Origin: Oscillospiraceae bacterium
GTDB taxonomy: Bacteria; Bacillota; Clostridia; Oscillospirales; CAG-382
DNA: 64,000 nucleotides
Assembly (NCBI GenBank): GCA_015063885.1
Contig: SVTH01000001.1
Location: 91,182 to 155,181, forward strand
Reading direction: 5' to 3'
The translations under genes and the position numbers were made by a program. Positions 27,128 through 30,100 of this stretch are shown piece after piece; within the stretch, counting starts at the first letter, position 1; each line of letters opens with the position of its first letter. The notes under the pieces were generated by a model. That model was given only the letters and a program-made list of their open reading frames with translations. It had not been told where the DNA came from and did no database searches.

Positions 27128-30100
27128 ATGAAACAGCTCTTACAAAAACTTCATAACCGCGCCTTGCCCTTCCTGTTGGCAGTGCTGATGCTGGCATCCT
27201 CTCTGCCCCTGAACGTGATCTCTCTCGGAACGGACTCTGCCCCCTCCGCAGGCACTCCCGCTCCCGACGGCTATATCTACGATTACGACACCCTGGAGAT
27301 CACCCTGAACGGGGAAGAGATCTCCGCCATGCAGATCTACTCCCACGAAAAGATCACCATCTCTGCCGACGGCGTGGCCGAAGAGGCTACCTACCAATGG
27401 CAGATCCAACACAACGAAAACGAAAATACCTGGATCAACATCTACGACGCCACCTCCAAGGAGCTTCCCGTCTCCCTGGCACTGGTGGGCAACCTTTTGC
27501 GCGCCGACAACACCGCCAAACTCCGTTGCCGCGCCTATACCGAGGACTACGCCTACCTCACATCTCCCGTCACCGTCACCGTAACAGACCCCGCCGAAAC
27601 CACCGTCACCACCCCCACCCAAACCAAACAACCCGCCACCTTTGCCGCAGAGGGGGACGCTTCCGATACTCCCGAGTTCGTCACCGTAACCATCAACTAC
27701 GTAAAATACGGCTATGTGTACGATTTGGAAAAAAATGATTACGTTTTGCAAATGCAGGGAGAGGCGTTCTCCCCCTACGTTGCCACTTTGGTGTACAACG
27801 GCTCTCTGACCACATCGGTCAACAACCCCACCATCGTGGGCTTTGAACCCTTTGTCGGCGACTCCGAGACTTCCAAGTCGGTTGTGGAGATCGATCTCGA
27901 CAAGGTTACGAAGGACGTTACCTATACCGTCAACTACAAACCTGCCAAAGTTCCTTACGAAGTGCACTATCTCTTCCAGGGCATCTACGACGACCTCTAT
28001 GTAGAGGATTCTACCGTTATCGGTACCAACGAAAATAACGAACCCATCACGGGTGCCATTTACGAGGGTACCGGCGTTACCGGCTTGCAGCCTGAGGACG
28101 GTGTGAAAGGCATCAACTTCCAAGGCTTTACCTCCCTGTACTACCAGCCCGATACCGTCGCGGCAGACGGTTCCACCGTTTTCGAGGTATACTTCGAGCG
28201 TAACTACTACCTTATGGAGTTTGATTGTAACGGCGGTTACGGCGTCAACACCGTCTACGTTCGTTACGGAACCTATATCTCCATCCCGTACCCCATCCGT
28301 GCAGGCTACGTGTTTGCCGGCTGGGATTTAGCGGAAGAGGTCGAGGAAGACGGGAAACTTGTGGACAAATACGATGGAGTTTCCGACCCCCTGCCTTCCC
28401 ATATGCCCCCGTACAACTCCTCGTACAGAGCGATTTGGGAGACCGTTGCAACGAAATATACAATTGTATTTTGGAACGAAAACGCAAATGATTCCGGTTA
28501 CAGTTATTGGGGAACCGGAGAAGCGAGTGCCCAGTCCGCTTCTGAAATTGATCCTCTTGCTGTTGCGAAGTTAGCTGCTAACTCGGCAGCGTCCAAAAAT
28601 TTATTGGATGCCCAGCATTTCTTTTTGAATGAGGCGAAGACTGCTGCAGAAAACCCCGCTACTGTGTTGGTGGAAGGTGATGGTTCTACCGTTATCAACG
28701 TGTACTATTCCCGCATAAGATATACCATTGATTTTGTTTACACGGGAAAGTGTTTGCTGGAAGCCCATACCCATGGTCCAGAGTGCTCTACCATCATTTG
28801 TCACACCCATTCGGCCGATTGTTATGTTTGCGGTTTTGCGGAGAAGCCGCATGACGAGACCTGCTGTAAGCTGGAAGCCCATGCTCACACGTCTTGTCCG
28901 CTCGGAAAATGTACTCATACTGCCCATTCAATTTCTTGCTACACGTTTGAAGGCGGTACCGTGGCAACAACCCCTACTCCTGGCATCGAACCAAGACCTT
29001 GGACTGAAATGGGCGGGTTTGATATCTATCGTTCGTGGAACAATTATAACTATGAGTGGCAGTATTATCTCGAGTTCAACGGAGAATACTATCTGATTTC
29101 TAATCTCGGCCGGGGTTTTTCCGCCGAACTGACTTGCACTCATGTTCACACAGATGACTGCTATTCCTGTGGAAAAAAAGCGCATACCCATGGATTGGGC
29201 TGTGATTACAGCGAGTGTAAAGATGCGACTCACCACGTTCATGGTGAGGGATGTTTCTCATGCGGCGAAGATCATGAGCATAACGACTCTTGTAAGTATT
29301 TGCATTGTCAGATAACGGAGCACACCCATACCACCGAATGCCAGCAGTCCTATAGCACCAACGGCATTTATAGCATTACTGCCAAGTATGATTCGGATAT
29401 TTCATATGTTTGGGAAAACAACCCTATCAAAGCATACCTCGACAACGGAATTGTTTGGCAATCAAGCGTTACTTCAAAGTATTACTCTTTCTTGGAGAAA
29501 ATGCCGGCGCAAGACATTACCATGACATATACCGAGTGGTCCGGTAATAAGTATACTTGGCATTACTATCTGCAGGTCAGTCCCTTTGAAGACTTAACCG
29601 GTTTGCAAATCAGAGAAGTAAACGGTATAAAATACAAATGGTATCATACGACCTCTGTAAAGGCAAATCGTCTTTCCTTGACCTACGATGAGGACTATTT
29701 CCCGATTACGGGTTATGATCAGAGAGATAATAAGGTTCCCAGCTTCAACGATCGTGTTGCATACCTGTATTACACGCTTAATTCTCACACGCTGAAGTAT
29801 TTCAACCGCAACGAAAACAGCGGCGCTCCTGCCGATCAAACGCTTTGGTATGGCGAATCTTTTGCGAAGTATAACGTTTCCAAAGAAGAGATGGAACGTG
29901 ATTATTACCCGTATGGTCTGGAGCCCGGTGCATACGAATTTGCCGGTTGGTATACCTCTCCCGGATGCTACGAAGGCTCCGAGGTGGATTGGGAAAGCGC
30001 AACCATGCCGGATGCCGATCTTGAAATCTACGCCAAATGGGTCCCCGTTACCCGTAACGTCACCTTCTACCACAGCTACGACAAGCTGGTAGCAGACGAT

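Follow-up and report, generated by a model that had tools for sequence, protein, structure and literature searches.

A short Cys/His module repeated in tandem in a giant secreted protein, a pilus tip adhesin and many other surface proteins of anaerobic gut Clostridia

Background

The streptococcal polyhistidine-triad (Pht) proteins and Aap carry multi-copy His motifs that bind Zn on Gram-positive surfaces, while very short Cys/His units in tandem are familiar as the CCHC zinc knuckles of nucleic-acid-binding proteins. The stalk repeats of the Periscope proteins (Rib, SHIRT, G5-E, CnaB) occur in variable tandem copy number in wall-anchored adhesins, where they form a rod that sets the reach of the binding domain, and Aap, whose G5-E repeats make up with those of SasG the so-called zinc zipper, is a Zn-dependent biofilm and adhesion protein (PMC9704523). 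As regards gene organisation, the C. perfringens bsa operon, sipW-bsaA-bsaB-bsaC (PMC7395162, PMC11580942), combines a SipW-type peptidase and small TasA/BsaA-like proteins with one large accessory protein, BsaC, the secretion of which needs the type IV pilin PilA3 (PMC11580942). In this work we describe a short Cys/His unit found in a 64,000-nt stretch of an Oscillospiraceae bacterium genome (GenBank assembly GCA_015063885.1, contig SVTH01000001.1, positions 91,182 to 155,181 of the forward strand), hereafter called the window. The unit is repeated in two proteins of the window, a giant secreted protein of 1632 aa and a predicted sortase-pilus tip adhesin, and we report its conservation, its distribution, its relation to the above systems, and a proposal for what it does.

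Results and Discussion

The repeat unit in the two proteins of the window

The giant protein is encoded by an open reading frame (ORF) on the + strand (27128..32026) that matches the InlB B-repeat/Listeria-Bacteroides-repeat models, both Flg_new (PF09479; E=6e-11, 42.7 bits for a cut-off of 27) and TIGR02543 (E=6.8e-12, 45.5 bits for a cut-off of 20.95) scoring above cut-off. These models leave aa 505-790 uncovered, and within this gap a segment of 197 aa (aa 542-738; nt 28751-29341) holds 20 of the 25 Cys and 21 of the 46 His of the protein. The original prediction, an earlier reading of this DNA, had counted nine HxHxxxC motifs here; the array is real, although a regular-expression scan finds eight strict H-x-H-x(2-3)-C motifs (aa 547-738), the ninth, CTHTAHSISC, being an HxxH variant. 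Once the motifs are read with their upstream Cys, all Cys of aa 542-738 are accounted for, and counting by Cys pairs yields ten units of the form C-x(1-6)-H-x-H-x(2-3)-C, of which two are degenerate. They lie, as had been noticed earlier, in two clusters of five on either side of a Tyr/Trp-rich insert (aa 605-669). The N-terminal arm (aa 542-604; 28751..28939, + strand; 10 Cys and 9 His) comprises C542-C553, C558-C565, C568-C579 (a degenerate unit with a single His, C568-x6-H575-x3-C579), C580-C590 and C595-C604 (HxxH), and the C-terminal arm (aa 670-738; 29135..29341, + strand; 10 Cys and 12 His) comprises C670-C678, C681-C692, C697-C709, C712-C722 and C727-C738.

The same short unit occurs in the 935-aa tip adhesin (15093..17900, + strand), for which the peptide first proposed was correct and its range, 15244-15336, was shifted by 2 nt from the reading frame. 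In frame, the peptide covers 15246-15335, and there two perfect units, C54-x4-H59-x-H61-x3-C65 and C69-x4-H74-x-H76-x3-C80-Y, occupy aa 54-65 and aa 69-80 (15252..15332, + strand). Apart from these two proteins, no real ORF of the window carries the unit.

A Cys/His-rich linker without module identity might throw up such motifs by accident, and the high local content of Cys and His, though nothing else, speaks for this. When the region was shuffled with its composition kept, the mean was 0.58 motifs with a maximum of 5, and eight motifs were reached in 0 of 20,000 shuffles (whole-protein shuffles of the giant protein gave a mean of 0.06). Together with the more than 100 conserved homologues and the 2,963 significant profile matches presented below, these tests refute an accident, for which we see practically no chance left. 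A search with Tandem Repeats Finder (TRF) detected no tandem repeat at the DNA level, only partial direct repeats of 20-23 nt with 65-83% identity, which argues that the units are old and that selection keeps only the Cys and His positions.

Because the upstream Cys is part of the unit, its core is better written C-x4-H-x-H-x3-C, usually followed by Tyr, with the consensus C-G-x-x-E-H-T-H-[TS]-[DE]-x-C-Y. Counts per unit were 2.11 Cys and 2.05 His in the giant family (P0001-P0120; 707 units), 2.03 Cys and 2.12 His in homologues of the tip-adhesin N-terminus (P0121-P0143; 72 units), and 2.01 Cys and 2.06 His in the proteins found by profile search (P0144-P0289; 2,293 units). Spacers within the unit are fixed (C-x4-H is commonest, x7 forms a second class, and H-x3-C is found in 80-97% of units), while the linker between units varies from 0 to 15 residues. 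Units recur with a compact period, every 12-16 aa, in the giant family, and every 20-23 aa in LPXTG-anchored proteins, whose typical repeat, liCGleEHtHtdaCYdeeGnl, keeps the same four ligand positions. Constant spacing within units, combined with variable spacing between them, marks a set of ligands and not a domain with a hydrophobic core. The data thus support the repeat as a discrete short Cys/His module, and not a compositional accident.

Conservation and modularity in the giant family

A whole-protein search returned at least 496 homologues of the giant protein, those with a name being "InlB B-repeat-containing protein" from Clostridia or Oscillospiraceae metagenome-assembled genomes (MAGs). 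The doubt voiced at the outset, that the motif might not be conserved among relatives, is answered by the best 120 homologues, about 100 of which keep the array at the same place, down to 32% identity, with 0-15 motifs per protein overall and 1-15 where the array is kept. In an alignment of the array region made without reference to the motif (A1; 30-42% identity, with one sequence at 95%), the only invariant or near-invariant columns within the arms are Cys and His. A search with the 221-aa array fragment alone found nothing in a word-indexed set of 5.8 billion proteins. Conservation extends to the relatives of the tip adhesin, as 21 of 23 homologues of its N-terminus (the exceptions being P0140 and P0143) have about two to a dozen units upstream of the CHAP-like domain; that both proteins share one short unit was rightly recognised from the start.

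The array of the giant protein is inserted internally, as a putative hairpin. The cassette is absent from 18 of the 120 homologues (P0004, P0017, P0030 and P0034 among them), in which an unrelated, Cys-free middle segment of about 90 aa takes its place; one of these, P0004, has 78% identity to the window protein across the aligned half of the latter. In other subfamilies the cassette is located on the opposite side of the conserved VEGDGSTVVNVYY strand. Being either swapped out or placed on the other side of this strand, the cassette is, to judge from these comparisons, a modular insertion that has moved or been swapped. AlphaFold2 modelling of aa 505-790 (19 sequences) places the strands RYTIDFVYT and GIYSITAKYD on its flanks, and no PDB entry matched this model below E=1 in a Foldseek comparison. 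Deleting the cassette from the sequence produced no Pfam hit, and the cassette was not seen to interrupt a recognisable Flg_new repeat.

Distribution beyond the window

A profile of double units (A2; gap-free, 34 columns) was searched against 1.84 billion cluster representatives at 50% identity, which carried out the profile search that had been called for and matched 2,963 clusters at E<=1e-3, of which 698 reach E<=1e-10 and 36 reach E<=1e-30. The module had been thought to be shared by two different fibre systems; it is instead spread over some 3,000 protein clusters with many different adhesive domains. Most of the top matches are LPXTG-anchored proteins of 1,200-4,000 aa with 2-45 motifs, in which the array begins at about aa 59, directly past the N-terminal signal region, and in most of which it precedes CHAP, VWA or pAdhesive domains (P0171 being an exception). 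In ten array proteins that we analysed for domain content, the partner domains were VWA, pAdhesive_15/choice-of-anchor A, CHAP, PA14/fibro-slime, MucBP, SH3b, DUF7601, DUF7604, FctA and Cna_B; in all ten the array was left uncovered by any Pfam or NCBIfam model, and the source names of these representatives were generic only.

At the DNA level, the pattern encoding CGxxEHTHxxxCY was present in at least 120 GTDB species, in 114 of which an ORF with two or more units was found. Among the pattern matches listed, nearly all are strictly anaerobic gut or rumen Clostridia, the carriers including Lachnospiraceae, Oscillospiraceae, Ruminococcus, Acutalibacteraceae, Faecalibacterium prausnitzii ATCC 27768 and Blautia difficilis M29, the last with an array protein of 1873 aa (L063, ORF 935-6556) that carries an LPETGG signal. 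A handful of matches were binned to Selenomonadaceae, Eggerthellaceae, Erysipelotrichaceae or Bacteroidota. The Bacteroidota-binned contigs are labelled Dysgonomonas (L017), Bacteroidaceae (L070), Prevotella (L082) and Parabacteroides (L097), and three of the four have ORFs with 3-6 units, which shows that they are not chance matches to the pattern; the contigs either come from Clostridia and were binned wrongly, or reflect horizontal transfer. A tblastn search of 72,556 plasmids with an array-rich protein gave no match, and hence no evidence of plasmid carriage.

Comparison with described families

Searches of Pfam-A, NCBIfam and PDB sequences with the array region of the giant protein yielded nothing, in line with the original remark that it could not be assigned to a named domain family. 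One RING-like hit obtained in the PDB with the array fragment was judged spurious, and the c-type haem (CxxCH) and Rieske (CxH...CxxH) motifs were rejected by inspection, as their spacing does not fit. The only PDB matches of profile A2 were retroviral nucleocapsid CCHC zinc knuckles (C-[FWY]-x-C-G-x-x-x-H, E ~1e-3). This likeness is, as far as sequence can tell, a resemblance and not membership: zf-CCHC (PF00098) matched neither the giant protein nor the tip adhesin, and likewise neither the 500-aa region nor the array-rich proteins; the CCHC knuckle has three Cys and one His as ligands, whereas the array unit has two of each; the CCHC spacing is C-X2-C-X4-H-X4-C, that of the compact arrays C-X2-C-X4-H-X5-C, and LPXTG-type units, like most units outside the giant family, lack the CX2C. 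Moreover, the array units are found in secreted or surface proteins, in contrast to the nucleic-acid-binding proteins in which CCHC knuckles sit.

Pht proteins resemble the array in having a multi-copy short His motif on a Gram-positive surface protein, with a role related to metal that for the array is a proposed one. Their motif is HxxHxH, without Cys, in 5-6 copies within a larger fold, whereas the array motif is HxH followed by Cys, its carriers are strict anaerobes, and Strep_his_triad (PF04270) gave no Pfam match. As for the zinc zipper of Aap/SasG, there Zn joins two chains and is bound by His/Asp/Glu of large folded repeats, while each array unit has a complete set of four ligands, Cys included.

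With the Periscope stalks the array shares a repeat number that varies between homologues (0-15 in the 120 giant-family members, 2-45 in the LPXTG proteins), together with the rod-like role proposed below. Its units of 12-23 residues are far smaller than any known stalk domain and apparently depend on Cys and His, whereas known stalk domains rely on a hydrophobic core; nor does the array show the high DNA identity between repeats or, in most LPXTG carriers, the location between the anchor and an N-terminal functional domain that are typical of Periscope repeats. The Periscope review does not have a Cys/His repeat among its repeats, and a search of the literature by motif, peptide and description retrieved, within the literature covered, no description of this one. 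The module is absent from the described families in the resources searched and is, in this sense, uncatalogued.

A metal-stapled rod as the proposed structure

It seems to us an evenly balanced proposition that the units are metal-stapled Cys2His2 beads, probably with Zn, and that strings of them form rods. Several indirect indications make metal binding probable, namely two Cys and two His per unit, the invariance of these residues, their fixed spacing, the weak likeness to CCHC knuckles, and the occurrence in strict anaerobes, in whose habitat extracellular thiolates can stay reduced; we also infer the identity of the metal, the rigidity of the strings and the pairing of the arms. In each unit, the two Cys and two His would hold one divalent ion, most likely Zn2+, in tetrahedral Cys2His2 geometry, and a string of such beads would behave as a stiff rod and not as a floppy linker. 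Five beads of the giant protein would lead out of a beta domain and five back, the two arms running alongside each other in a two-stranded stalk by which a small aromatic-rich knob (aa 605-669), the likely ligand-contacting tip, is kept away from the body. At the pilus tip and in thousands of LPXTG adhesins, 2 to 45 beads would form the N-terminal segment, furthest from the anchor.

Such a stalk might instead be stapled by disulfide knots without metal, formed within each unit or between neighbouring units or arms, the His having another role such as pH sensing. Cys-rich extracellular repeats are usually disulfide-bonded, and every arm has an even number of Cys (10+10 in the window; 4/4, 8/8 and the like among homologues). 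Disulfides give no reason, however, for keeping the two His as strictly as the Cys. An H-x-H pair on a strand is a classic metal ligand, and the carriers, as strict anaerobes, live under reducing conditions. On balance we find disulfide knots improbable.

The proposal of a metal-stapled rod draws further on the knob and the arms. The knob (65 aa; 28940..29134, + strand), modelled alone with AlphaFold2 on 50 sequences, is confidently predicted to fold as a small all-beta domain of six strands (mean predicted local distance difference test, pLDDT, 90.3; predicted TM-score, pTM, 0.77), and its aromatic core (VYR..., YY..IG..WY) is kept across subfamilies. Foldseek found no PDB fold match for the model (best E=1.6), and the knob had no accepted match in a Pfam search. 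Since its GxWYYLG strings look like a choline/cell-wall-binding repeat, this idea was tested and rejected, Choline_bind_2 reaching E=0.29 on only one of six knobs. In 78 two-arm homologues, the numbers of Cys before and after the knob are correlated (r=0.92) and agree within one Cys in 61, a match attained in 0 of 10,000 permutations, and five distinct arm size classes occur (4/4, 6/6, 8/8, 10/10 and 12/12 Cys). Arms of matching length are expected of two stiff strands that have to come back to one insertion point, and they point to rods because flexible linkers need no equal length. In 17 proteins with three clusters and two knobs, the outer arms (9-13 Cys) remain equal irrespective of the size of the middle cluster (6-13 Cys), an arrangement compatible with a branched, two-headed stalk; in these proteins (P0002, P0005, P0008, P0062 and others) the middle cluster usually has an even number of Cys (6, 8 or 12; 13 once).

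Several observations count against a metal-stapled rod. Extracellular Cys2His2 zinc sites are unusual in bacteria, one unit of the window has a single His, and the CCHC match is marginal, spanning only 11-12 residues. The AlphaFold2 model of aa 505-790 left the arms unmodelled at pLDDT 33-50 and so lends no support to a knuckle or to paired arms. The arm-symmetry statistic ignores the shared ancestry of the homologues, although, despite this caveat, each of the five size classes is symmetric. Finally, in most LPXTG carriers the array is outermost, at the N-terminus, and not between the anchor and the adhesive domains, a position that one would not expect of a pure spacer and that speaks for an independent function.

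That last point bears directly on another possibility, in which the metal sites are themselves functional, either capturing or buffering Zn, Ni or Cu at the cell surface or acting as half-sites of an intermolecular zinc zipper between fibres or cells. The N-terminal arrays of up to 45 units fit this idea, as do the location of the giant gene in a SipW/BsaA-type biofilm-matrix operon (see below) and the precedent of Pht and Aap. Four ligands per unit would nevertheless saturate a tetrahedral ion without any partner, the equal lengths of the arms speak for a constraint of architecture, and no metal transporter or regulator was noted beside either gene, where no systematic search was made. Capture or zippering is in our judgement unlikely, if worth keeping in view, and the metal-stapled rod is the structure we retain in what follows.

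Genomic context of the two genes

The tip adhesin reads, in order, signal peptide, two Cys/His units, CHAP-like domain, VWA, GBS104-like Ig, SpaA and LPXTG, with VWA_2 (29.8 bits for a cut-off of 27), GBS104-like_Ig (33.7/26), SpaA (48.9/23.1) and LPXTG_anchor (17/15.9) all identified by Pfam and NCBIfam models. On these matches, and with the neighbouring pilin and sortase genes described below, the assignment to the sortase-assembled pilus tip adhesins of the GBS104/RrgA type holds. The units begin about five residues past the likely signal-peptidase site AMA|GEA, predicted by the A-x-A rule. The segment from the signal anchor to the first Cys, L-[KR]-L-T-G-I-x-M-A-G-E-A, is strongly conserved among tip homologues. 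The CHAP/TIGR02594-like domain (aa 112-255; 15426..15857, + strand) scored below cut-off in the window protein (TIGR02594, E=0.023), and Pfam CHAP (PF05257) was found in homologues P0132, P0137, P0139 and P0140. A Ser occupies the position of the catalytic Cys (GDWSSMF), a change common to most homologues (gdwSamf), with Cys kept in P0132, P0139 and P0140, which suggests a widespread pseudo-amidase that may have a binding role at the tips of pili.

A dedicated signal peptidase I (14464..15057, + strand; TIGR02227, E=1.2e-37) is encoded immediately before the tip adhesin; in F. prausnitzii ATCC 27768 (L059) the gene for an array protein (3617-4456) likewise comes directly after that for a dedicated signal peptidase I (4479-5069). 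The tip adhesin gene is followed by those for a SpaH/EbpB-type major pilin (17971..19677, + strand; NF033902, 96.3 bits) and a class C sortase (19750..20601, + strand; NF033745, 263 bits).

The giant gene belongs to a conserved eight-gene cluster (window 23589-33176 with the prepilin gene that follows it), the same order of which is found beside two homologues on unrelated contigs (L121/L122, 2893-14202; L123, 3481-13433): two proteins of about 235 aa, one of about 330 aa, a SipW-type peptidase, two of about 180 aa, the giant protein and one of about 196 aa. The SipW-type signal peptidase (25391..25960, + strand; TIGR02228, 79.2 bits for a cut-off of 51.85; SipW model, E=2.4e-18) keeps its position in L121-L123. 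A small secreted protein (26535..27101, + strand) is weakly BsaA/TasA-like (TIGR04090, E=0.0043, 16.8 bits for a cut-off of 60), this weak match being the sole one of the small subunits to the BsaA/TasA family; their N-termini look, by eye, like those of SipW cognates. Other small paralogue-like genes are located at 23589-24290, 25911-26504 and 32045-32632. A prepilin gene (32805-33176 in the window) comes after the cluster in both the window and L121. An ORF of 343 aa (24363-25394) ends in IPPTGDD, a hydrophobic stretch and RNRR, which looks like a sortase sorting signal of a PPTG variant within a SipW operon, and its product could be the wall anchor of the fibre.

The cluster shares with the bsa operon a SipW-type peptidase, one large protein and a link to type IV pilins, represented here by the neighbouring prepilin gene, and its small proteins are weakly TasA/BsaA-like. 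It differs from it in that the large protein of bsa is a VWA protein, whereas here it is an InlB-B-repeat protein with a Cys/His cassette; no Cys/His array has been reported for the Bsa proteins. By analogy, the giant protein is a plausible distal component of a SipW/BsaA-type fibre. The earlier suggestion that the unit is shared by the distal parts of two fibre systems stands for the pilus tip, while for the giant protein the distal place is an assumption. The giant family lacks LPXTG and has a conserved C-terminal motif, W-L-x-[DG]-x-x-x-V-x-N-x-F (here NWLSDETVNENQFNP, window ~31970-32023), that is also present in the unrelated array-bearing proteins P0159, P0162, P0250, P0271, P0276, P0281 and P0282 and may be a tag for attachment to, or secretion with, such a fibre.

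The two gene clusters are also informative about a covalent role, in which the Cys and His would be substrates or catalysts of Cys-His or thioether cross-links, or of mixed disulfides with host mucins. Gram-positive pilins and adhesins are known for unusual covalent bonds (thioester and isopeptide chemistry), and arrays do occur at adhesin tips. Neither conserved cluster, though, encodes a modifying enzyme, and we know of no precedent for covalent chemistry repeated 10-45 times per protein at a strict 2:2 stoichiometry, which leaves such a role very improbable.

Conclusions

If the beads bind metal, they would amount to an uncatalogued structural element of roughly 3,000 protein clusters (50% identity), among which are the largest surface adhesins and the pilus tips of those Clostridia that are most abundant in the human and ruminant gut. 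Anaerobes would then be using zinc-finger-like chemistry outside the cell, which aerobic bacteria largely cannot do, colonisation would be linked to zinc availability and redox state, and there would be a handle on how poorly studied gut adhesins are built. In a more speculative extension, which we think has only a small chance of being right, the beads would be a new, extracellular class of Cys2His2 zinc knuckle, almost confined to gut bacteria that are obligate anaerobes; with rod stiffness tied to zinc and reduced thiols, the reach and adhesion of pili and matrix fibres would depend on both, and the adhesins would act as built-in sensors of oxygen and of zinc withholding by the host. Were this so, it would concern such dominant commensals as Faecalibacterium, Blautia, Ruminococcus and Lachnospiraceae. 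A profile hidden Markov model of the unit would annotate long stretches of thousands of LPXTG proteins that are now "hypothetical" or generically named, and the cultured carriers F. prausnitzii ATCC 27768 and Blautia difficilis M29 make the idea directly testable.

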